This document shows, piece after piece, positions 6,572 through 60,596 of a stretch of 64,000 nt of DNA. Location of the stretch: the NCBI GenBank assembly GCA_017654855.1, contig CM030335.1, positions 1,054,001 to 1,118,000 of the forward strand, written 5' to 3'. Each line of letters starts with the position of its first letter. Within the stretch, counting starts at the first letter, position 1. The notes under the pieces were generated by a model. The model did no database searches and had not been told where the DNA came from. It saw nothing but the letters and a program-made list of their open reading frames with translations. A program made the position numbers and the translations under genes. The DNA comes from Podospora anserina. Taxonomy: Eukaryota.

Positions 6572-6930
6572 ATGGCTAAAGACGACATCCCACGCCTCTC
6601 CCATCTCAACAGGCCCGAGAAGCTTGAGGATCTGCTCAAGCAAGACAGAGATGATGACTGCCTTTCGTGCAGGATAGTGGGTATGTTTTCGCCTTCTGGT
6701 TCATCTCATGTCATCTCCATGGGCTTATGTTCTAATCCTGCATAACAGGCGGCGGTGCATTCTTGGGTCTTGCTGGTTACAGCTATCTCTCCGGTCAGCA
6801 ACAATTACAAGCACAAAAGGCTGCCATCTTGGCTTCAAAATCGAGATTTGGTATGCGCAGCAGGAGTGCCGCCATCACGGGTCTCTCGTTAGGATTGGCC
6901 TATCTGGGTCTGTATAGGCTGTTTAAATGA
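6572..6930 (+). CDS. Small membrane protein, DUF4536 / DMAC1 (TMEM261)-like; two exons, absent from ORF track
   Basis: ATG 6572, intron 6681-6748 (GTATGT..CTAAT..CAG); MAKDDIPRLSHLNRPEKLEDLLKQDRDDDCLSCRIVGGGAFLGLAGYSYLSG...GLSLGLAYLGLYRLFK*; DCxSCR motif followed by two hydrophobic segments. Confidence 0.75.
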
Positions 6931-7996
6931 GGAAAGGGAGGTGATGGAGGGACGAAGATGAGCAATCACCACTCAATTGGGAAGACACCAGCTGTCATCT
7001 GACTTGGGCATTTCAAGATCTATGTCTCTTCGAATCCAAAGGGACCAATGGAAAAGAACACCGCCGAGCCAAGTCAGGGAGCCAGAGGGAAGACAAGTCG
7101 TAGGAGGAGAGGGTGTAGAAAATAGCCTGTACCATAATGTGTATATCACCATCTATTGCATCCACACCACATCCTACATACATCGGGCTGAATGCAGTAC
7201 AGCAAGGCATAGAACAGCATGTCGAAAGCAGAAGAAGAATGTCAAAAGCTCACCAGCCAAACCCCAACACCTTCGCCATCCTCCCCTTCCCCCCATCCAT
7301 ATCCCTCATCTACATCGCCTTCTTCCTCCTCCGACACCACCTCTCCCTCAGCACCGAACTCACCCACTTCGTCATCTTCATGCTCGTCGGTCACTGGCTC
7401 AGCTGCCTCTTCATGCACATTCTCGGCGAGTTAGCCTCCAGGTTCGGACACAAGCTTGGACTTGCCATCATCTCCCTGATCATCAATCCACTCCGTCTTG
7501 TCGGTGGTTTCAAGTCACTTCCTGTGGCCATGCCTGTGTGGCTTGGTACTTTAAAAGAAACGGGGGATTACCGATGACTGCCAGGAATGGTTTGTTTGTG
7601 GGTACCCAACTCAGAAAATGGGCATAGATGGGGGGGAACGCCTGCTTGTGGGATAACGTCGTCCAAAACAGATTACAATTTTGTCCTGAGATAAAGATTT
7701 TGAGCTCTAAACACCACATGATTCGTGTCAATGCATATTCCAAAGCAACGTTCTGCATAACATACAGCAAACAGCCGCTCCCTCCATCATGTTTCTAAAC
7801 AAACGAGGGAGTCAAGGCCTTTTCAAAGAACCATATGTACAGTACAACCTCCACACACACGCACACAAGGACAAGACACTCTTTTTATGGGAGATGGAAA
7901 GTTTCCCATTCCAAAACTCCCACCAAACCTCCTCTTCTAATAAAGCCCCCAAGACTTTTCCCACCAACCCACCAACCCATAAACCCCACCCAAAAC

Positions 7997-29390: not shown

Positions 29391-30614
29391 TTTTATAGAT
29401 CGGTGCCGTCGTGGGTTGTGGGATCTGTCGGTATCCGGAGGTTGAGTACACTTGGATGCTGCGATGATGTCAAGCCCGATTATTGACGACGATAGAGATG
29501 CAAGGCGGGTTGAAGGTGAGTTCGAAATGGTGTTCGTCTGATTGGTGACTTTCCTTTGTGGCTTTTGTGGACAAACGTCTTGATGGACGTCAGAAGTCGC
29601 CGGTGTCGATGAAATTCAAGCGCGTTAAGTTCTTTTAGCAAAGAGAGACACGTCAAGCTCGATGAGAAGTTGCTCCCTCCCTCCCCACCGGGGTTTAAGT
29701 GGTTTATCTAGTCGCGTTACCAACGACTTCGTAGCCAGGGATCTGGTCCCTTCCAAAATTTGATCTTGGCCGTCGTTCACACATCAAGAATCACAGATCT
29801 AGTTGCAGGCCGAATCTGCTTTCAAATCTCAAGACTGAACAATTGCTCTACTGACGGTATCTGTTTACTTGAAGGTGAGCCCCTTTCCTGGTGTGCCGGT
29901 CTCCTCATAAACTAAGTTCAGTATACTACACCTCTGCCAGCGAAATATATATTAGTGCGAGACTTGCCCTTCAAAATAATATATTCATATATTAATTATT
30001 AATAATTATAGATATAATATTAAAATTAATTAAATTTCAAGTTACTTATTTTTATTTTCTATAGTAAAGATACTTTTTAGTTTTAAAGAAATATAAATCT
30101 ATTTATATTATACTTATTAGCTGGTAAGCTCTAATAGGCCTATAATATAGAACCTATACAGGGTTACTGTAAAATACAGCAGTGCGTAAGCGGAAGCAGG
30201 AGGATACGACGGCAGTGCCGAAGGAAGGTAAAGCACTATAATACAGTAAAGTATAAGGAATAAGAATTGCCTTTATTGCCTTTAGCCTTAGCCTTAAACT
30301 TTAGCCCTTAAAGAAAGAAAGAAAAGAACTATTCTATAGGAGAGAGGAGAGGTCTATATATAGGCCTTCGTAGGCCTACTGTAGGTCCTATAGGCCCTAG
30401 AAGCCCCTATACTACTTTAAGGTATATAGTGGGCTTAAATGGGTCTAATATAGACTTACGGAAATCCATAGAACCTTCAGTAGCAAAGATACCCTATAAA
30501 TCACACTATTATAGCAACATACTGCGTAAGTTTATAGCCACTTTAAAAGGTTTTAATATCTATTAACTAAGCCTTAGGCCACAGTAGCCCTATAAGCCTT
30601 CAAAGGTCCTTTAT

Positions 30615-31033
30615 TGTAACGAACCCCTATACAGAACCTCTGAAAGGGATATAGGTTAAAGGTAACTTCTAACAATTAGTTCGGTGCAGCTAAATAGTGC
30701 ACAATAAAATGTCTCGATGTAAACACAAAATACCGTAAATACAAGCTTGAATTGCATACTGCGGAACTGTCTATCTATACCGGCCAGTTCCTCCGTATAT
30801 ATAAACCTTAATCCTCTAGGTACCTCCGTACTTAGATTACCTCGATTACTAAGCGCTCCTGGTGATCCATCCTGGCTTACCTCGCTCACCTAGCGCTCTT
30901 AGCGAGCCGGCTTACCTCTGCTAAGAGGTAAGCGCCCTACTATCCTATAGCCCCGCTGTTATCTGTTACTTAACTAGTTACTACGGCCTACTATAGTCCC
31001 CACTCTGCCTTACTATATAGTTAGTCTGTAATA
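30615..31033 (-). repeat. 3' LTR of the gypsy element
   Basis: Differs from 37652-38070 almost only by transitions; adjacent to PPT. Confidence 0.92.
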
Positions 31034-31173
31034 TAATGCTCCCCCTCCTTATTTTTCGTCCCGAAAGATTCGCTATTACTATTCCTTATACCTTAGTACT
31101 TCTGCCTTTTCTTTTACTATATATATATTTCCTTTCCCCCTTCTTTCCTTAAGCTTACCTAGCGTTACTAACT

Positions 31174-32458
31174 ATATCGGGGCGCGTAAAGAAACGCTAC
31201 CGTAATACGACTCGCGAATAAATAGTCTTTTCCGATTCGATCGACTAAAACGGTATTAAAATTATATTTTACTTTCGTTATTAGCGTATAAAACCTTAAG
31301 GATACTATATTATAAAGGAAGGGTCGAATTATTATTCGAATTACGTTTAAATAAATAAATCGTATAACGGTTTAAACGTAGCCGACTCCCGTAAATACTT
31401 AAGTACTATAGCCGTACGTCCTTTTATTAATAACCGTAATAATAAAAAATTTATTAAAATAAAAAAAAATTAATAATAAAATAATTATAAAAAAAAATTT
31501 ATTAACCGAAACGTTAAATACTTTAACTCGCTTATATAAGTAGCGTACGTCGATATATAATTAAGGTTGTTAGCTGGTAAGCCCTGATAGGCCTATAATA
31601 TAGAACCTATATAGGGTTGCTGTAAAATATAGTAGTGCGTAAGCAGAAGCGGAAGGATACGACGGTAGTGCCGAAGGAAGGTAAAGCACTATAATATAGC
31701 GAGGTATAAGGAATAAGAATTGCCTTTATTACCCTTGGCCTTGGCTTTTGGCCTTAGCTTTAAGCTTTTGCCCTTAAGGAAAGAAAGAGAACTATTCTAC
31801 AGGAGAGAGGAGAGGTTTATATATAGGCCTTCGTAGGCCTACTGTGGGTCCTGTAGGCCCTGGAAGCCCCTATACCACTTTAGGTATTTAGTGGGCTTAG
31901 GTGGGTCTAGTGTAGACTTATGGAAATCTATAGAACCTTTAGTAGCAAAGGTACCCTGTAAATTACACTATTGTAGTAACTTACTACGTAAGCCTGTAGC
32001 CACTTTGGAAGGTTCTAGTATCCATTGACTAAGCCTTAGGCCACAGTAGCCCTATAAGCCTTCAAGGGTCCCTTATAAAGAATATTCTAAAGGGATCCAA
32101 GCCGGGAAGTTCCATTACTACTTATAGCAGTACTGCCCACTGTAATATTAATCTATAGGGCAGTAAGTAAGGCACTTAGTAGTACCCACACATTAACAAA
32201 GGTTTTAAGCTTTTTCGTTAAAGTATAAAGTTACTAAACGAGGCTAACGGTTTAACGTTTCCCACTAATTAATTAAATAAATAATATTTTATTAATTGGG
32301 CTTAATCGATAAGTACTTTTAAAATTATAAATTAGGAGGCTATTAATACCGCTCCTTCGGATCTTAGTATTATCCTCGACTCTTTTACTAACTTCGATTA
32401 GCCGCCTAATCTTTCCTTAAGCCCGGACGTAGCCGGTCCTTCTTTCCTAACCCCGTAA
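31174..32458 (+). pseudogene. RIP-mutated antisense gene inside the retrotransposon: Zn2Cys6-like cluster, coiled coil, acidic tail; interrupted by solo LTR A
   Basis: Six TAY codons (RIP product of TGY) spaced C-x2-C-x8-C-x8-C-x2-C-x6-C at 31270-31365; putative intron from 31391; de-RIP reading LARLxKQR...QG|xELFRxGMELLDE continues across the LTR insertion; end coordinate approximate. Confidence 0.65.
31568..32198 (-). mobile_element. Solo LTR family A copy 2 (631 bp, intact) nested in the gypsy element
   Basis: TGTTAG...TTAACA ends, TSD AAGGT at 31563-31567 and 32199-32203. Confidence 0.93.
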
Positions 32459-32849
32459 AATACCGCCGATAGTACGCCTTTTATTTTTTAAAGTAATTAA
32501 AATATATAGTATTATTTATATTTAGGTCCTTTTATATTTTTTAATTTTATAATATAGTATATAGTATACCGGTTATTACGTCGAAAGTATAGGTTCGATT
32601 CCCGTTAAAGTTCTTTCGTATTTAAATTTATAAATATTTTTCCATAAATTTAAATATAAATCTCCCTTTTTATTACCGGTAATACCTTTTTATTTTACAG
32701 TAATAAAAACGTATAGTATTAATTAAGTTTAGATTTCTTTATACTTATTAATTTAGTAGTATAGTACGTTAACCGTTATATCGAAAGTACGGATTCGATT
32801 TTTATTTAAATTTTAATTGGTTTAAATATTACCGGTAAAATTTTTTTTA

Positions 32850-35800
32850 TTTATTTAAGTAATTAAAATTTATTTTTAACTTCTATAAATTATTTATAGC
32901 CGGATATTTTAATTAATTAATTAAATACTTTAATTAACCTCTATTGAACCGTAAATTTAATATCTTTTCTATATTATACTCTTCTTTTTTATCCTCCGTT
33001 ACTATTTATATATTAACCTTATTCACCGGTAATACGGATTCTAAAAATAAAATATAAAAAATATATAATTATAAATATATTATATTAAATAGTTTTAATT
33101 CGAATACCGTTTTTAAGATTTTCCTTTTAACTTTAAATAAGCCTACTTTCCTATAGTTTAGTTTTTTACTAGGTCTTTTAATACGTAAATTACGTATAGA
33201 AAAGAATACTATATTTTTTCCCTTAAAGCAAGGTCCCTCGAGCTTTTTAATATTATAGTATTTCCGTATCCTTTCCTTTATAAACTTTAATTTTTATTTA
33301 AGTTTACTATAAAATATATATAATTTATTTACTTTAACCCTAACCTTAAGTACCTTAACATTAAATCTCTACTATAAGTCTACCTTATATTTAAAATTTA
33401 TAAAGAATAGTATAACTTTAATCGTCTCGGTTAATAATATATTATATATTAATTATATTATAAATAATAATTTAATTTAATCGTTATACTCGAAATTAAT
33501 ATAATTCCGTAAATATTATTTTATAATCTAATTAAACCGTTCCGTTTAACCGTTTATTTAAAAGTAGTAGGCCGATAATACTTTACTTATTACCCCTAGC
33601 CTCGTTATTAATACTTTTTAAAACTTCGATACGAATTTAATATTACGGTCCGTAATAAACTTTTTTAATTATATATATATTAATATAATATACCGTAATA
33701 CTATATTTACTAATTATTTTACTAATTAAATTTCTTTATATAATAAAAAATATATTTATTTAATAAGCTTATCGATTATCGTTAATATACTATCGTACTT
33801 AACGCCGGTTATTATATTTTTAAACTTTAATAATTTAATAATAAAATTTATTATAACTAAACTCTATAATCGTTTTACTATTAATAATAATTCTAGAAAT
33901 TTATAAAACTTATACTTCGTAACCTTTATTTCTTTATACGTATAGTATAATTAAATAACTTCCTTAACGTCGTCTTTAATCTTTAATTAATTAAAGTATT
34001 ATTTAATTTTTTTTATAATTTTCGCGATACTTATATATCCTCCGAACTTCGATCTATAAATTTTTATTATTAATATCGTCCTATTATTTAGCTTTACGTA
34101 TACTCGATTTTTATACTATAGCTTTCCCTAACTACTTTTTTAAATACTTTATAGCTTTAACTTTTTTTATTAATATTATTCTATAATATCGTTACTTAAC
34201 CTTCCTTAATATTTATTAAAAGTAACTTATTTATAATATATTACGTAATACTTTATTTACGGTTAAAGTAAATACTTAAAAATATCCTTTAACGTCTTTT
34301 TAAATAATAATAGTAACTCTCTAAATATATCTTTATAATAATCGGCTTGCCGGCTAAATATATTTACTTTAATATTTTCCAAACTTTTTTTATAATTAAT
34401 TTAAAAATTAAATTCCGAAAGAAACTTTAATTATTATATTTACCGTACATTAAAAACTTTTATTATAGTAAAGTATTATAGGTTTTTATAATCCGTATAG
34501 ATCTATATTTTAGAATTAATATTATTAAAATATAACCTTTATTTTTCGAACGCTTCGACGATAATAAATAACTTTTTATTGTAGATTAAATAGTTTTAAC
34601 GTATCTTTTTTAGTTTTTTCGAAAAGAAAACTATCGGGTATAGCTTTTTATTATCGTTTCGCTATCCTAACTACCTACCGATTATATAGTTTAATATATT
34701 TACCTCGACTTTAAATAATCGATTAGGGTTTCGTAATTTAAATATTAAGTTTTTTAAAATAATTTTTTTTAGCTCCTAAAAGGCTTACTTTTTTTTTTAC
34801 CTCTACCGGAATTCCACGTCTTTCTTAATTAAATAGTTAAATAGTCGCGCGATTCCTACGTACCTATAAATAAATATTTAATAAAAATTTATAAATCCTA
34901 AAAATTCTTTAACGTATATTTATATTTATAGCGTAAGTTAATCCTTAATTACTATAATTTTTTTAAATTCTATACGAACCTTATTTAACGATATTAAATA
35001 TTTTAAATATATTATTTTTTATATATAAAACTCGCTCTTTTCTTTATTAATTAAAAGTCCGGCTCCGTATAGCGTATCGAATATCTCTCGTATATATTAT
35101 TTATATTCCTTTAAAGTATATAAATAAATAAAAATATTATTAAAATAATATATTATTATTTTATCGAAGTATTTCCGGATCGTATAGTTAATAAAAAATT
35201 AGAACGTTATAAGTATATTAATTAACCCGAATAGTATTATAAAATATTTAAAATAATTATAAGGTATATAAAATATTATTTTTTATTTATTTTTTTCTTT
35301 AATTTATATATAGGTGTACCCGATAGATATATTTAAATATATAAAGTATTATACTTTTATTAATTAACTTTATAATTTAAATATTAATAGTAATAGGTAT
35401 TTATTTTTTATTATTTTATTATTTAATTAATAATAATTTATATATAGTTATAAATTACTATTTTTTTTTAGTACGAAGAATATAGGGTATCCTATTAGCG
35501 ATATAGATTCCTTAATATATTTTCTCTTTAAATTTTTATTTAAATATTTCTATAATTCCTTACTTTATTTATCGTTAGTATAATAAACTTTAAATAACTA
35601 TAACTTAGTTCCTTCTTTTAATTTAATCTCGTAGTCTCACGATCCTCGTTCGGGAAATCCCTTTAAATATTTAATCGTAAAAGTTAAATATTTTCGATAT
35701 TTTACCGGTACCGCTTTTTTTTTACCTTTCTTTATATTATTATAATAAGTATATTTATTAACCTTCGATATCTTTACTAACGTTATTAACCTTATTTTTT

Positions 35801-37560
35801 TAATTTTATTATTTATATCGATAAAGTATATTATTATTTTTTAAATTCTTTACGGTAATACCGTAAAAGGTATTTATTCTATACTTTACTTTATACGTAC
35901 GCCTAATCTTTTATTATTAATTAAATATTTTTAAAGTTTTTTTAATTATAAATAATTACTATCCCTTTAATCGATATTTAAATTATAATTTTTATATTAT
36001 AATTATTTTAGGATTATATCCTTTAAGGGTCTTATATTTATAATATTAAATATAATTAAAGTTATTTTTCTTTCGACTATAATATTTAAAAGTAGTATTT
36101 CTTTATAAATTCTTTATATCGGAAATAATTTTTATATAATAATTTATTCCTTTTTTTTAATAGTATTTTAGTTTAATATATAAATTATAACGAAATTAAG
36201 TTTGTTTCCGTACCGCTATTTATTAATATTACCGCTTAAATATCTTTCTAGTATATTATAACCTAGAAACGTTTATCTCTCTTACTTCCTTCCTATACGG
36301 TAGTAACCTCGCTAACGAATATCGGGTCGTTATTCTATATCTTTACTTTACGCTAATACTTTTGAAAATACTATTCGTAGTCCGTTAAAGGTTACCGGCC
36401 TCCGCGAAGAGCTATAAATTATTTTTTAAACGGTTATATTATTTAAAAATATTTTTTTATTCCGGGTTATTTAGTAATATAAAGTTTTTTAATTATACCC
36501 GTTTAATTTCCTTTTATTTTCCGTTTTTTACGTACTTAGTATTCTCTTATATATATATCCGATAGCAGTTCTTTATTTTACTTTACTAATATTTAATAAT
36601 TATAACCTTTATAATTTTTAATTCCTTCGATATAGTAATTACTACGATCTTTTTCTTTTATCCGAATCGCTTAAGTACCCTACAATCTTTTTTAAAATAT
36701 TTTATTTTACCGTAATTAAAATACTTAAAATTATTTTTACTTTAGTTTTACGGCCTTTATTACTAAATAGTATTAACTTTTATAAGCCTTACGTATATAA
36801 TCCCCGAAACGTAAGTCCCGTATAGCTATCTCTTTTTTTTATTATTAAAGTAATAGGGTCCTTATATATATATACTTTTACGCTTTTTACGGTATTAATA
36901 TTATTAATCGTTAATACGAATTACTATTATAATATACTTATCGATAGTTTCCGGTCACTCTATTTAATATAGTTTATTTTTAATTTTTTTTAAGCCCGTT
37001 ATAGAATAACTATATTAATCCTTTATCGTTAATTATATTATAAAATATATTTATCTTAAATACTATAATATAATTAATAATAAATTAAGTTTATTTAAGG
37101 TTAGTTAGTCGTTCCTAAGTGTATTTACTTTCGTTATACTTTTTAAATACCTCCTTAATTTTCTCTTTAAAACCTTTATATAATTTAAAATACTTTTTCG
37201 TAATATTTTCCCTCTTATTTTATTTATTATTAAAGTAATCTCCTAAAATCGGCTCGAACTAAATAAATACTTTATCCTTAAGCCTAAACGCGGCGTATAT
37301 AACCTTGGATTTCTTGTCTGGGAAACGAAAAGGGTAGTACTAAACGTAAGCTTTAAGTTAAATTAAAAATCTTCCTAACTTTCTTTTTATACCTCTATAG
37401 CGATTAAGTGCTTCGAGCTTAATACGCTCTCCTTCCCTGCGTAAGGTACTAATTTCCTGGTAGAGTATAGCGTTCTTTTACGTAAATATATTATAGGAAA
37501 GGTATAACTTATCTTTAAGCTTTTAAATACGAACGAAAAGTTAGTCGATAGTAGGTTAGG
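32850..37560 (-). pseudogene. RIP-degraded gag-pol
   Basis: De-RIP motifs: protease IDSGA about 36215, RT YxDD about 35140, RNase H EVDASDY..IAFFSKKL about 34610-34710, integrase GHxG about 34040, TDRD..F about 33645, DGQTER about 33545, chromodomain EEYxxEKIL..YLI.W about 32900-32985; boundaries approximate. Confidence 0.85.
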
Positions 37561-37651
37561 TCGAAATCCTTTAAGTATTAATATTTCCGGCTATAATATT
37601 ATTTTAATACCTTTAATTTATTTGTAATAGAGTTAAAGTAAGTATATAACG

Positions 37652-38070
37652 TGTGACGAACCCCTATATAAAACCTTTAAAAGGCATATGGGTTAAAGGT
37701 AATTTCTAATAATTAGTTCGGTGTAGCTAAATAGTATATAATAAAATATCTCGATATAAATATAAAATACTATAAATATAAGTTTAAATTATATATTACG
37801 GAACTATCTATTTATACCGGCCAGTTCCTCCGTATATATAAACCTTAATTCTTTAAGTACCTCCGTACTTAGATTACCTCGATTACTAAGCGCTTCTAGT
37901 GATCCATCCTAGCTCACTTCGCTCACCTAACGCTCCTAGCGAGCCGGCTTACCTCTGTTAAGAGGTGAGCGCCCCACTATCCTGTAGCCCCGCTATTATT
38001 TATTACTTAACTAGTCACTACAGCCTGCTGCAGTCCCCACTCTGCCTTGCTATATAGTTGGTCTGTAACA
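37652..38070 (-). repeat. 5' LTR of the gypsy element
   Basis: Direct repeat of 30615-31033, next to gag end of internal region. Confidence 0.92.
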
Positions 38071-38286
38071 TTTATAAAAAATATTTTAAAGAGATCCAAG
38101 CCGGGAAGTTCCATTACTACTTATAGCAGTACTGCCCACTATAATATTAATTTGTAGGGCAGTAAGTAGGGCACATAGTAGTACCTACACATTAATAATA
38201 CTTAGTGCCGGAACCTAGGTTCGTTAATATATTAAATAAATTAAATAAGAATTTTGCTATGCCGCACCGCTTTTATAGTGGGGCCG

Positions 38287-38657
38287 TATAACGAACCTCT
38301 ATATAGAACCTTTAAAAGGGATATTAGTTAAAGGTAACTTCTAACAATTAATTCGGTATAGCTAAACAGTGCACAATAAAATATCTTAATGTAAACACAA
38401 AATGCTGTAAATACAACTGTGAATTGCATACTGCGGAACTATTTATCTACACTAGCCAGTTCCTCCATATATATAAACCTGTTTATTACTATTATCACTA
38501 GTAATAATGTCGATTATTACTCGTCGTTCACCGAAGGCTAGTGATAATCGCGATTATCACCCTTAGCGCTAGTGATAATCTAACTTCCTTACTTTTCCGT
38601 TCCTAGTAGTTAGACGGGTCGCGCTCTGCGCTCCCTACTTATATTAGGTCCGTGATA
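38287..38657 (-). mobile_element. Solo LTR, second subfamily of the gypsy LTR (shared 3' half, different 5' half)
   Basis: First about 195 bp match 30615-30808 up to TATATAAACCT then diverge; flanks GGCCG/GCCCG (4/5 TSD). Confidence 0.85.
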
Positions 38658-38948: not shown

Positions 38949-39315
38949 TAGTGGTTTGGGGTGCGGCCACAGGCCTAAGAGTATGAGTAAGGAAGCGGGG
39001 CTCTTTGAGGACTCAGGGGTTCAGGGGTTATGTATATAAGCGGTCTGCTTCGGACATTCTATTTTAGACAGGACATCGACTTTTATTTTTCTTCGTATTT
39101 TGTGCCTTGCACGCGTGCAGGCAATTCTGGCCCTCTGATCAGGCCAATCCGGTGCTTATTATGTGGCCTGCGAGCCCATAGTGTTTTTTCTTTGTCTTGA
39201 GTGAAGTGCGGCTTGCGAGCGAGTTACTGTCACGCAGGCGTGTCCATTTAGGGACCTGTTGAGAGTATATTTGCGGTGTTGTGGTTGGTTTGTGTGTTTT
39301 CTCACCATTTCAGTA
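38949..39315 (+). mobile_element. LTR-like repeat family C, copy 1
   Basis: Inverted homologue of 39562-39927; central TATATAAG. Confidence 0.75.
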
Positions 39316-39561: not shown

Positions 39562-40017
39562 TATTAAAATAGTGAGAAATATACAAAATAACTATAACAC
39601 TATAAATATACCCTCAATAGGTCTCTAAATAAACACACCTGCGTAATAGTAACTCGCTCGCAGGCCGCACTTCACGTAGGACAAAAAAAAGACATTATAG
39701 GCTCGCAGGCCACATAATAAGCACCGGATTGGCCTGATCAGAGGGCCAGAATTGCCTGCACGCGTGTAAAGCACAAAATACGAAGAAAAATAAAAGTCGA
39801 TGATTTGTTTAAAATAGAATATCCGAAGCAGACCGCTTATATATATGACCCCTGAACCCCTAAGTCCTCCGAGAGCCCCGCTTCCTTACTTATACTTTTA
39901 GGCTTGTGGCCGCACCCTAAACCATTATATACATAGCCCCCTTAAACCCCTAAGTCCTCTAAGCGCCCCGCTTCCTTACTCATACTCTTAAGCCTATAGC
40001 CGTACCCCAAACTAATA
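39562..40017 (-). mobile_element. LTR-like repeat family C, copy 2, with internal about 85-bp tandem duplication
   Basis: Reverse complement of 38949-39315; 39845-39927 repeated at about 39932-40012; RIP-altered TGTTG..CAACA-type ends. Confidence 0.78.
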
Positions 40018-40352: not shown

Positions 40353-40725
40353 TGTTACGGACCTAATATAAGTAAGGAGCGCGGGGCGCGACCCGTCTAA
40401 CTACTAGGAATAGAAAAGTGGGGAAGTTAGATTATTACTAGCGCTAAGGGTAATAATTACGATTATTACTAGCCTTCGGTAAAGGACGAGTAATAATTAA
40501 TATTATTATTAGTAATAATAATAATAAACAGGTCTATATATATACGGAGGAACTAGCTAATATAAATAGATAGTTCCGCAGTATATAATTCACAGTTGTA
40601 TTTACGGTATCTTATATTTATATCGAGACATTTTATTGTGCACTGTTTAGCTGCACCGAACTAATTGTTAGAAGTTACCTTTAATTAATATCCCTTTTAG
40701 AGGTTTTGTATAGGGGTTCGTTATA
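40353..40725 (+). mobile_element. Solo LTR, same subfamily as 38287-38657, opposite orientation
   Basis: TGTTAC...GTTATA ends, perfect TSD GAGGG at 40348-40352 and 40726-40730. Confidence 0.92.
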
Positions 40726-59087: not shown

Positions 59088-59744
59088 CTATGGGTTTAGT
59101 ATAGTGAAAAGTGGTATAATTGGGGCTGACATAACTCGAAGCGGTATTGCTGGGGCTACCTTAGGGCGCCTGTAATCAATGTTGTGGGGACCGGGACGAC
59201 AAACATTAGGATCTATAGAGCTAGGGTAGCGAGAACCGACGTTGCTGGGGCCGCCATGACGAAAAGCTATTTCGGTCGAGTCGCTGCTTTCAGAGCCGGT
59301 GTTTCTAGAGCCCCTGCTGCTAGGCCCGGAATAATTAGCAGAAGTCTTGTTGGGGCCGGTATGACGAGAATCGATACCGCTCGGGCCGTCTTGGCTGGTG
59401 CCGGTGTTGCTAGAGCCAGTGTTATTGGGACCGGCTTCCTTAGAATTGGACCTTGGTAGTGCCTGGGCCGGTGTTGCTGGGTTCCAGGGGTTGCTAGACT
59501 CGGCGTGCCTAGAACTGGTATTACTGGATTTCGGGTTGCCGGAATCAGCTTGCCTAGAGCTGGTGTTCTTGGACTTGGACTTGGGGTTGTTTGATTCGGT
59601 GTGTCTGGAACCGACGTGTCTGGAACCGCTGTTGGGGGCGTTGCTGGATTCAGTGCTGCTGGGCTCGATTTGCCTAGGGCCGGTACTGCTGGACTCGGGG
59701 TTACTGGACTCGGCATGCCTAGAGCCGGTAGTGCTGCTCGTCAT
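59088..59744 (-). CDS. Orphan Ser/Gly/Asn-rich ORF built of degenerate 15-bp (pentapeptide) repeats; may be non-functional
   Basis: TGSRH AESSN PESSS TGPRQ IEPSS TESSN periodicity; no recognised domain. Confidence 0.35.
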   Translation of the reverse strand: MTSSTTGSRHAESSNPESSSTGPRQIEPSSTESSNAPNSGSRHVGSRHTESNNPKSKSKNTSSRQADSGNPKSSNTSSRHAESSNPWNPATPAQALPRSNSKEAGPNNTGSSNTGTSQDGPSGIDSRHTGPNKTSANYSGPSSRGSRNTGSESSDSTEIAFRHGGPSNVGSRYPSSIDPNVCRPGPHNIDYRRPKVAPAIPLRVMSAPIIPLFTILNP

Positions 59745-60596
59745 GTTGAATACAGCTGTTGGCTAGAAGTATTATGGTAAAACGAACGTGGTCGGTTATG
59801 TGTGTAGTCACATTTGTGAGAGGACAAAATGGTGCAGTTGAATGACGGGAGCTTGGGTACCTGAGTTTTCTAGTGATCCCTTTTGGGGAATCACGGGAAT
59901 TAGAGCCCCAGCAACAACCAGAGGCTCTTGCCGACAGTCCAAATGGCAAGAGACATGGAGATGTTCTTCGGTAGTTGGGAAAGTACTGCAGTGTGACAGC
60001 CCTGGGTTGTCATACACGCCATAGCACTCAGATTCCGAGACCTATTGTTCATGGAATATATATACATTGTTTTGTACATGTTACCATCAACAACTCATCA
60101 AAAGACCCTCCTTCCAAATGAGATTAGGATTACAGAGCCTGTCGGTTATGTAAACGTCAAATGAGCCCATCTGAAGTCGTATATACGCCACCTTTCACCT
60201 CGTCTAGAACCGCAAGCCAAGAGTCAAACTAAAACGATATTGTGACAGCCCTCCATGAGTCTCCGGCTACATACGTACAAGAACAAAAGCACTATACATG
60301 AATACACCCCAGTGGTATAAATAAACGCCTCTTTATGCTTCCCGGTCTAATGATTCTGTTGTTCCCTCCAGCTTCATGGAAACCGCCACCGCTCCCAAAT
60401 CCCAAATCCGTTCAAAAAGATGAAAAAGACTCCGCTGTGTCCATGCGTTCCAGGCGATGCTATGCGTTTTGGTCATCGACAACCCAGTGCCTCCCAATCG
60501 TGTGTACCCTCCCGAAAACGCCGAGAAAAAAAGACCAAGAATATGATGTGCGTGTGTAAAGTGTGCAAAGGCGTATGAGTAGTTCGAAGCAAGTGA

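Follow-up and report, generated by a model that had tools for sequence, protein, structure and literature searches.

What did the DNA between the polypurine tract and the chromodomain of a heavily mutated fungal retrotransposon once encode? The question is raised by a Ty3/gypsy chromovirus that lies on the minus strand at 30615-38070 of a 64,000-nucleotide stretch of Podospora anserina contig CM030335.1 (the window, in what follows, is this whole stretch). An initial annotation, made from the letters alone, had proposed that the plus strand of this interval carries an antisense, intron-containing gene for a Gal4-like protein. The antisense gene itself, with a Zn2Cys6-like cluster, a coiled coil and an acidic tail, placed between the chromodomain and the tract, finds support in six relatives of the element, in a family of at least 295 members and in a collinear profile match in the window. 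Judging from sequence comparison, we give a probability of approximately 0.85 to the reading that 31174-32479 (+), minus a nested long terminal repeat (LTR), represents an accessory gene of this fungal chromovirus clade that was destroyed by repeat-induced point mutation (RIP), an ascomycete process. As its intact relatives show, the gene is a standard component of this element group, apparently one not yet described. The window copy itself is dead. It is a relic rather than a gene, being interrupted by 14 TAA or TAG stops, one shift of frame and an LTR insertion of 631 bp; an uninterrupted open reading frame (ORF) of about 175-210 codons is not found there. A gene can stay recognizable under saturating RIP because the changes are directional, from Cys to Tyr and from Trp or Gln to stop.

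Antisense reading frames in intact relatives

Three of the five best protein matches to the pol frame of the window carry unexplained tails of about 290 residues, and we therefore fetched the DNA of relatives, namely 80 metagenome loci retrieved with the alignment of the three top pol matches bearing long tails. A scan for six Cys over the 2.5 kb past the chromodomain, where 60 of the 80 loci have at least 300 nt, detected the pattern in ORFs of 6 of these 60 loci (L001, L002 and L004-L007), always antisense to pol and never in sense. A hidden Markov model (HMM) of the family, run over all ORFs of at least 50 amino acids in the 80 loci, recovered seven ORFs in those same six loci (E 1e-43 to 7e-67), the next ORF reaching E 0.0066 only. 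The seven ORFs run uninterrupted and unspliced from Met to stop over 173-207 codons. They share a basic N-terminus, the arrangement C-x2-C-x6-C-x8/9-C-x2-C-x6/7-C and a long stretch of Glu, Lys, Arg, Ala and Leu; one example of their tails is ADLGWLQA..DLFDP..DFSSF. Their start codons lie 29-141 nt from the polypurine tract, which is followed by TAG or TAA and by an LTR starting TGTTAC, while their last ~50 nt overlap the end of the chromodomain coding sequence, tail to tail. The interval from chromodomain to tract measures 497-687 nt in the six carriers versus 171 nt in L003, which is without the ORF.

The family extends well beyond these loci. A profile search yielded at least 295 proteins at E<=1e-3 among 8,000 scored. 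The six Cys are present in 117 of the 120 members listed, with spacings of 6, 8 and 6 in 116 and of 6, 9 and 6 in one, and they are invariant in the seven-sequence alignment of the relatives. Named members come from Bipolaris maydis, Hortaea werneckii, Stemphylium lycopersici, Exserohilum turcicum, Sporormia fimetaria and Pyrenophora tritici-repentis, some of them Dothideomycetes, under the source labels hypothetical, 'Zn(2)-C6 fungal-type domain' or 'GAL4 domain containing'. Many family members reside on contigs of 6-7 kb. The median protein has 197 residues with the first Cys at residue 32. The 80 residues past the cluster consist to 71% of A/E/L/K/R/Q (family median), and the tail has medians of 0% K+R, 16% D+E and 22% F/W/Y/L. 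Helix length varies by at least 17 residues within the family. Longer fused forms were not found among its members, which is weak evidence. Between L005 and L007 pol is 83% identical and the antisense protein 30%; on such sequence comparison the antisense protein is evolving much faster than pol, and the contrast between these two loci suggests that the accessory gene either diverges very fast or has been exchanged between lineages.

Two further observations concern antisense ORFs in this material. A single contig holds two copies of the ORF (L006:170-727 and 6623-7171, both on the minus strand) that are 47% identical, suggesting two related elements in tandem. Furthermore, other chromovirus relatives have a second kind of antisense ORF (L017:3816-4400 (-) and L021:7212-7769 (-)), with an N-terminus rich in Cys but of other spacing, then a basic stretch, a middle that resembles a helix and a strongly acidic tail; these ORFs match no Pfam family and match the family HMM only faintly (E 0.0066).

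What kind of protein the intact ORFs specify can be approached through their cysteines. Zn2Cys6 domains follow the spacing rule C-x2-C-x6-C-x5-12-C-x2-C-x6-8-C, to which the intact relatives conform. The HMMER comparison with Pfam Zn_clus (PF00172) that had been suggested at the outset did give matches over the cluster region, in four of the seven relatives' ORFs (17.5, 15.9, 11.2 and 10.6 bits; none in the other three), where Zn_clus is the only Pfam match, but the gathering cut-off of 21 bits was not reached. The best sequence match in the PDB by profile search is LAC9 (1cld; E 0.059), with all six Cys aligned. An AlphaFold2 model built from 119 sequences, with a mean predicted local distance difference test (pLDDT) of 80, has short helices at residues 32-37 and 51-56, which begin at the two C-x2-C pairs, and a helix at 66-146. 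When the model was submitted to Foldseek, 13 of the 15 rows shown were Zn2Cys6 DNA-binding domains (Pho7, Ppr1, Leu3, Hap1, LAC9 and Gal4); Ppr1, LAC9 and Pho7 superposed with root-mean-square deviations of 1.0-2.5 A (31-36 columns). The lowest E was 0.52 and no structure match was significant. Because the Cys spacing fits but Pfam scores stay below the cut-off and fold matches are non-significant, we call the protein Zn2Cys6-like, on sequence and model, short of proven family membership.

The long helix offers a second handle. A homodimer of residues 25-150 modelled with ESMFold2 scored 0.44 versus 0.00 for the best control, a mark reached by 21 of 30 proteins solved as one-chain pairs and by none of 23 single chains. 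Its runs agree in at least 77% of contacts, the partner pLDDT is at least 74, and a heptad rhythm extends over 68-128; the modelled dimer is antiparallel, unlike Gal4. Among eukaryotic proteins, 17 of 29 solved pairs attain the mark, yet of the 7 that have no older solved relative only 1 does so; the predictor may therefore have passed this dimer by remembering solved coiled coils. The amphipathic helix of approximately 80 residues is thus to be taken as predicted to self-associate.

The probable relic in the window copy

The corresponding stretch of the window is made up of the following features.

31174-31504, plus strand: candidate antisense gene relic, part 1, with the start ATA (possibly RIPed) and a basic N-terminus, then an (S/F)ID..G.I motif, the remains of the zinc cluster and the first portion of the helix
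31270-31365, plus strand: six Tyr codons at Cys-cluster spacing, Y-x2-Y-x8(7)-Y-x8(9)-Y-x2-Y-x6-Y
31437-31505, plus strand: A-rich low-complexity tract (Tandem Repeats Finder) with a frame change, where the profile alignment switches frame
31505-31567, plus strand: candidate antisense gene relic, part 2 (frame mod 2), helix, placed by the RIP-aware profile and ending at the LTR insertion
32204-32479, plus strand: remainder of the candidate relic, namely the helix end and the tail, which is acidic and aromatic (INWA*, NFD*); the final codons fall in E1, a copy of the chromodomain 3' end

Read as it stands, this DNA bears out most particulars of the initial annotation. The start at 31174 is ATA TCG GGG CGC GTA AAG AAA CGC (I S G R V K K R). 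All stops are TAA or TAG: five in the 72 codons to 31390 in the frame of 31174 (four TAA, one TAG) and, in the second frame (coordinate mod 3 = 2), two in the 15 codons at 31523-31567 and seven in the 92 at 32204-32479, which makes up the 14 over both plus-strand frames. Tyr codons are found at 31270, 31279, 31303/31306, 31330/31333, 31342 and 31363 (TAC-x2-TAT-x8-TAT-x8-TAT-x2-TAC-x6-TAT), with the non-canonical first spacer of x7-8 that had been pointed out. The motif strings were located in the raw forms LTRLYK*R, LFR*SIKLLNE, INWA* and NFD*. The nested LTR with its AAGGT duplication is real, and the LTR plus one duplication amounts to 636 bp, a multiple of three. Two matters of layout needed correction. 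The interval is indeed element DNA from tract to chromodomain, but the tract lies at 31039-31056, not beside 31174, and the element's own DNA from the tract to the chromodomain end at 32814 comes to 1,121 bp (31057-31562 plus 32204-32813). Likewise, a plus-strand gene across the interval stands, but the last ~365 bp (32448-32813) are two tRNA-like units outside it; the interval without these tandem units measures ~755 nt.

The logic by which RIP turns Cys into Tyr and Trp or Gln into stop is confirmed by the pol of this very copy. At columns conserved in 14 relatives, Cys appears as Tyr in 3 of 3 cases, Trp as stop in 9 of 9 and Gln as stop in 5 of 6; at the same columns His has become Tyr in 8 of 9, Asp has become Asn in 12 of 15 and Glu has become Lys in 4 of 9. 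A zinc-cluster gene in this copy must therefore resemble the six-Tyr pattern.

We compared the window with the family by a RIP-aware score, in which each window codon is given the set of its possible ancestor codons (by C-to-T and G-to-A change) and scored on a 195-column family profile against background. This is a likelihood score on the window codons as they stand, and no de-RIPed or consensus sequence was used. Two matches were obtained. The first (25.4 bits) aligns columns 9-61 with 31204-31368 (+) in the frame of 31174 (mod 1), and the second (32.4 bits) aligns columns 91-195 with 31505-32479 (+) in frame mod 2, across the removed LTR. They are collinear on the plus strand, and other frames or parts of the interval reach at most 20.8 bits. 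In 400 dinucleotide shuffles a score of 25.4 was reached four times (p of about 0.01), one of 32.4 twice (about 0.005), and both jointly never. Eight other RIPed pieces of 1,121 bp have maxima of 22.7 and 22.5 bits.

Several details of placement agree with the intact relatives. Counted from ATA 31174, codon 33 holds the first candidate Cys, the family median being 32. An (S/F)-I-D-x-x-G-x-I motif precedes the window cluster, as in L004 and L005, and the stop past the fifth candidate Cys is at the position of the family's conserved Arg. The candidate start lies 118 nt from the polypurine tract, and the relic as a whole sits between the tract and the chromodomain end, on the strand opposite pol. 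In a pol tree of the 28 of 80 loci with an ORF of at least 900 amino acids, five proteins and the window (52 loci being left out), the window groups with all six carriers in a 13-row set with support 100, separate from 21 loci that lack the ORF; its own branch is long and its composition skewed.

For the intron we found no support. The donor-like GTAAAT is present at 31391-31396, and the initial annotation supposed that an intron starting there, with its acceptor before ~31523, had survived retrotransposition because it is antisense to the genomic RNA. The aligned parts of the window are in different frames, with a gap of 136 nt versus 29 profile columns, and HTLV-1 HBZ has spliced forms (PMC10186651). 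Nevertheless, all seven intact ORFs of the relatives are unspliced, and the frame change falls in or just after the A-rich tract at 31437-31505, which reads N/K-rich in the first frame, as RIP makes of a Glu/Lys helix, given the Asp-to-Asn and Glu-to-Lys changes in pol. The tract is probably, by its sequence, a RIPed Glu/Lys-rich helix with an indel. Since the length of the family helix is variable, no intron is needed, and a one-base indel in the run of A accounts for the frame change more simply. We regard the intron as improbable.

Equally improbable, in our estimation, is that the Tyr pattern and motifs arose by chance in AT-rich RIPed DNA, the interval being a long non-coding 3' region. 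Taken alone, the relaxed pattern would indeed be compatible with such an origin. With C or Y allowed at the six positions, there are two occurrences of it over the six frames of 30-42 kb, and it turns up in 32 of 1,000 dinucleotide shuffles of the 1,116-bp interval (3.2%), in 46% of 300 whole-element shuffles and in 42% of 200 island shuffles; the canonical x6 pattern with C/Y has no occurrence in the island. Tyr accounts for 8-9% of codons in every island frame. Stops are uninformative because their density is equal in the true pol frame (9%) and in every other island frame (8.0-9.5%), and TGA stops cannot survive RIP. The relaxed Tyr pattern alone is thus weak, and by comparison with the intact relatives only does it become convincing: strand, place and distance from the start coincide with those of their cluster, a second, independent stretch is collinear with the C-terminal two thirds of the family at a joint score not met in the shuffles, and the length of the interval fits the carriers and not the non-carrier. 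Purine/pyrimidine codon periodicity was tried as a RIP-proof coding test and discarded as powerless, the pol frame giving a chi2 of 9.1 over 4,087 nt and the non-coding LTRs a similar p.

The weakest alternative, which we consider very improbable, is that the interval is a remnant of a sense-strand C-terminal extension of Pol with the antisense frame as its shadow: four of 115 chromodomain-bearing representatives (P0021, P0022, P0023 and P0097) have tails of 289-298 residues, three of these are among the five best window pol matches, and the sense frame of L001 and L002 is open across the whole antisense ORF for 247-253 codons (L001:5290-6033 (+), L002:319-1080 (+)), but the tails are dissimilar to each other and to the window (best E 0.23) and have no Pfam domain, the pol frame of L004-L007 closes 24-69 nt past the chromodomain while the antisense ORF is open, and the six Cys of the antisense product are invariant throughout the family. 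The closing of the sense frame in L004-L007 makes it most plausible that the long sense tails, which are mutually dissimilar, are shadows cast by the antisense gene; open frames of the type seen in L001, L002, P0021, P0022, P0023 and P0097 are output by gene callers as long Pol tails.

The antisense accessory gene is accordingly the reading that we favour, and a number of observations weigh against it. Some of these are also what a chance origin would predict: ordinary searches are blank, with no Pfam family in the six read-through frames of the interval and no match of the plain family HMM at the locus among the window frames; the spacing from second to third candidate Cys is 8 (or 7) codons versus 6 in all 117 patterned members; and comparable RIP-aware scores occur elsewhere in the 64-kb window, where the locus ranks second for the N-terminal part, behind 26.4 bits at 59425, and third for the full profile, with 31.6 bits behind 33.0 and 31.6. 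In addition, L003, a close relative, is without the antisense gene, and in P0019, one of the nearest intact pol relatives, Pol ends 28 residues past the chromodomain. As to the nature of the product, the sub-threshold Zn_clus scores, the non-significant fold matches and the antiparallel arrangement of the modelled dimer count on the same side.

The match at 59425 was considered as a zinc cluster and rejected, being a low-complexity host stretch instead. The surrounding DNA (59088-59766) is low-complexity repetitive host DNA, rich in Ser, Pro, Gly and Thr in several frames, and gives the best chance score to the family profile.

The chromovirus and its island

The relic lies in an AT-rich island of ~30.0-42.0 kb with a GC content of 0.17-0.41, the rest of the window having 0.46-0.63. 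The internal region of the chromovirus has a (CpA+TpG)/(ApC+GpT) ratio of 0.02-0.07, compared with 1.08-1.19 for flanking host DNA. The island and the chromovirus copy are RIP-saturated, nearly every CpA and TpG having been removed. Self-comparison and junction reading resolve three nested insertions, in which an outer solo LTR of a family here called 'AC' was entered by the chromovirus and this in turn by a second 'AC' solo LTR.

30115-38197, strand not applicable: outer solo LTR, family 'AC', split by the chromovirus; target duplication ATACT at 30110-30114 and 38198-38202
30115-30614, no strand: left part of the outer 'AC' LTR (self-BLAST, 30114-30614 = 31567-32076, 86%)
38071-38197, no strand: right part of the outer 'AC' LTR (38072-38198 = 32073-32199, 92%)
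30615-38070, minus strand: Ty3/gypsy chromovirus with 419-bp LTRs and TG..CA ends; target duplication TTTAT at 30610-30614 and 38071-38075
30615-31033, minus strand: chromovirus 3' LTR, 419 bp, 87% identical to 37652-38070
31039-31056, minus strand: polypurine tract, AAAAATAAGGAGGGGGAG on the minus strand, 5 nt from the 3' LTR
31568-32198, no strand: nested solo LTR 'AC' with TG..CA ends; duplication AAGGT at 31563-31567 and 32199-32203
32448-32813, plus strand: two tandem units of 207 and 159 bp, each a ~60-nt copy of the chromodomain 3' end followed by a tRNA-like stretch
32814-37651, minus strand: chromovirus internal region with gag-pol in one unbroken frame (P0001), a relic of the reverse transcriptase (RT) YxDD motif at 35150-35124 and the chromodomain at 32984-32814
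37652-38070, minus strand: chromovirus 5' LTR (self-comparison and junction reading)

The two chromovirus LTRs share 87% identity and differ by 52 transitions and 1 transversion, with no indel. On the element strand they start TATTAC, the RIPed form of the TGTTAC with which the LTRs of the relatives begin. The polypurine tract is of the same build in L001-L007, for example AGGAGAGGGAGGA-TAG-TGTTAC. The nested 'AC' LTR sits in the helix region of the antisense gene and differs from the two parts of the outer one by 50+10 transitions and 3+1 transversions. One 'AC' solo LTR is older and one younger than the chromovirus, and the family was therefore active both before and after its insertion.

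The order of RT, RNase H, integrase and chromodomain, together with the LTRs and the target duplication, identifies the element as a Ty3/gypsy chromovirus. Its gag-pol frame has 165 stops in 1,833 codons (9%). Pfam detects RT_RNaseH_2 (4.8e-15) and RT_RNaseH (4e-14) in the RIPed pol frame, and did not detect RT, integrase core or chromodomain there. HMMER with the read-through pol retrieved 51,146 proteins at E<=1e-3, with alignments over query residues 20-995 that continue through the Pfam chromodomains of the relatives. The best match is P0019 (1.8e-140, 32% identity), and the Verticillium dahliae gypsy protein P0020 is 34% identical. A word-indexed protein search with the RIPed pol returned distant relatives only, at 19-30% identity, a weakness of this method here because RIP destroys shared words. 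Related Pol proteins end a median of 15 residues past the chromodomain (115 of 150 representatives have one). A viral contig collection was searched with P0019, and no relative was confirmed in it. Of sampled window words, 72-78% are present in 20 of the 24 listed sequencing runs (six studies, one organism), and the listing shows no RNA run that contains them.

The tandem units separate the end of the antisense gene from pol and are absent from the six intact relatives. They are 77% alike, and their chromodomain-end copies align as E1/E2/E3. The tRNA-like stretches lie at 32543-32613 and ~32750-32815; the Rfam tRNA model gives 28.9 bits at 32543-32613 versus a gathering score of 29. ARAGORN found no tRNA at the units nor in L001-L007, and the two stretches as they now stand fold no better than shuffles.

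Elsewhere in the same island we noted LTR-like fragments at 38287-38653, at 40357-40725 (inverted) and at 38949-39310 with 39567-39927 (inverted). Some of these share the first ~190 bp with the chromovirus LTR, and one inverted pair is 88% complementary.

A putative element-borne regulator

Antisense accessory genes are known already from some retroviruses and from the plant Tat/Retand elements, while one with a zinc cluster in fungal chromoviruses is apparently new here. The closest comparison in arrangement is HBZ of HTLV-1. This gene is antisense to gag-pol and lies beside the 3' LTR, which holds a negative-sense promoter, and it encodes a small nuclear protein that carries a dimerising helix as well as an activation domain and modulates the LTR of its own element (PMC10186651). 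The fungal gene resembles it as a retroelement gene opposite gag-pol and next to the 3' LTR. In contrast, HBZ is a basic leucine zipper and not a zinc-cluster protein, belongs to a vertebrate retrovirus and has spliced forms, and we saw no sequence relation between the two. Transcription from the LTR and a regulatory role would be extended to the fungal gene by analogy with what is described of HBZ.

A second comparison is with plants. Ty3/gypsy Retand (with TRP28 proteins), maize Grande and rice RIRE2 carry, as a regular trait of a lineage, antisense ORFs in the region from pol to the 3' LTR; these are possibly DNA-binding, and tandem repeats occur in the same region (PMC11963269). The comparison with Grande that had been drawn for this locus holds as an analogy, in the presence of antisense ORFs between pol and 3' LTR, but for nothing beyond that. 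The plant elements are non-chromovirus members of Tat/Retand with 2.9-6.6 kb from pol to LTR and TRP28 (PF04195), whereas the interval of the fungal chromovirus is 0.5-0.7 kb and its product Zn2Cys6-like. TRP28 (PF04195) had no match at E<=1 in the eight ORFs scanned.

Among fungal transcription factors, Gal4, LAC9, Ppr1, Pho7, Leu3 and Hap1 share with the antisense protein the arrangement C-x2-C-x6-C-x8-C-x2-C-x6-C, followed by a helix and an acidic region. Unlike these, the antisense protein has ~200 residues, is without a middle homology or regulatory domain and is encoded by a retrotransposon; its ~80-residue helix is modelled antiparallel, it falls below the Pfam cut-off, and it evolves faster than pol. 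Closer at hand, the gene-less chromovirus L003 and the Verticillium dahliae gypsy element (P0020/P0169 cluster) have the same order of protease, RT, RNase H, integrase, SH3 and chromodomain and belong to the same tree clade, but L003 has 171 nt from chromodomain to tract and no such ORF. A search for terms in the Verticillium element paper found no mention of an antisense or additional ORF (PMC3441728).

How such a gene might work can be outlined. Since the ORF leaves next to no room before the polypurine tract, only the short spacer and the 3' LTR would be available for its promoter; antisense transcription would begin in this LTR or beside it, much as antisense genes are driven by retroviral 3' LTRs (PMC10186651). 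The protein may bind DNA as a dimer via its zinc cluster, and the acidic tail may act on transcription at the element's own LTR or at host promoters, in the manner of HBZ. On sequence and model, the product would have the parts of a small dimeric activator, and it may, as the initial annotation proposed, regulate the element or counter silencing. Rapid change on top of a scaffold that stays conserved would be in keeping with a factor that conflicts with host control. We put forward tentatively, at slightly less than even odds, that the whole clade carries its own Gal4-like factor, a dimeric DNA binder driven from the 3' LTR that would switch the element or nearby host genes, and thus a fungal counterpart of HBZ that evolves several times faster than pol, as in a silencing conflict.

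In the literature searched, which did not extend to supplements, subscription journals or repeat databases, we found no report of an antisense gene in a fungal LTR element, nor of a retrotransposon-borne zinc-cluster factor; an earlier description is possible, the search having been limited to part of the literature. The interest of the finding lies in the family, the window copy being inert. Should the protein prove to be a working factor, no fewer than six named fungal proteins now annotated as hypothetical, Zn(2)-C6 or GAL4 domain would be transposon genes. Furthermore, these elements would bring their own regulator, which would bear on how fungal transposons escape or tune silencing.

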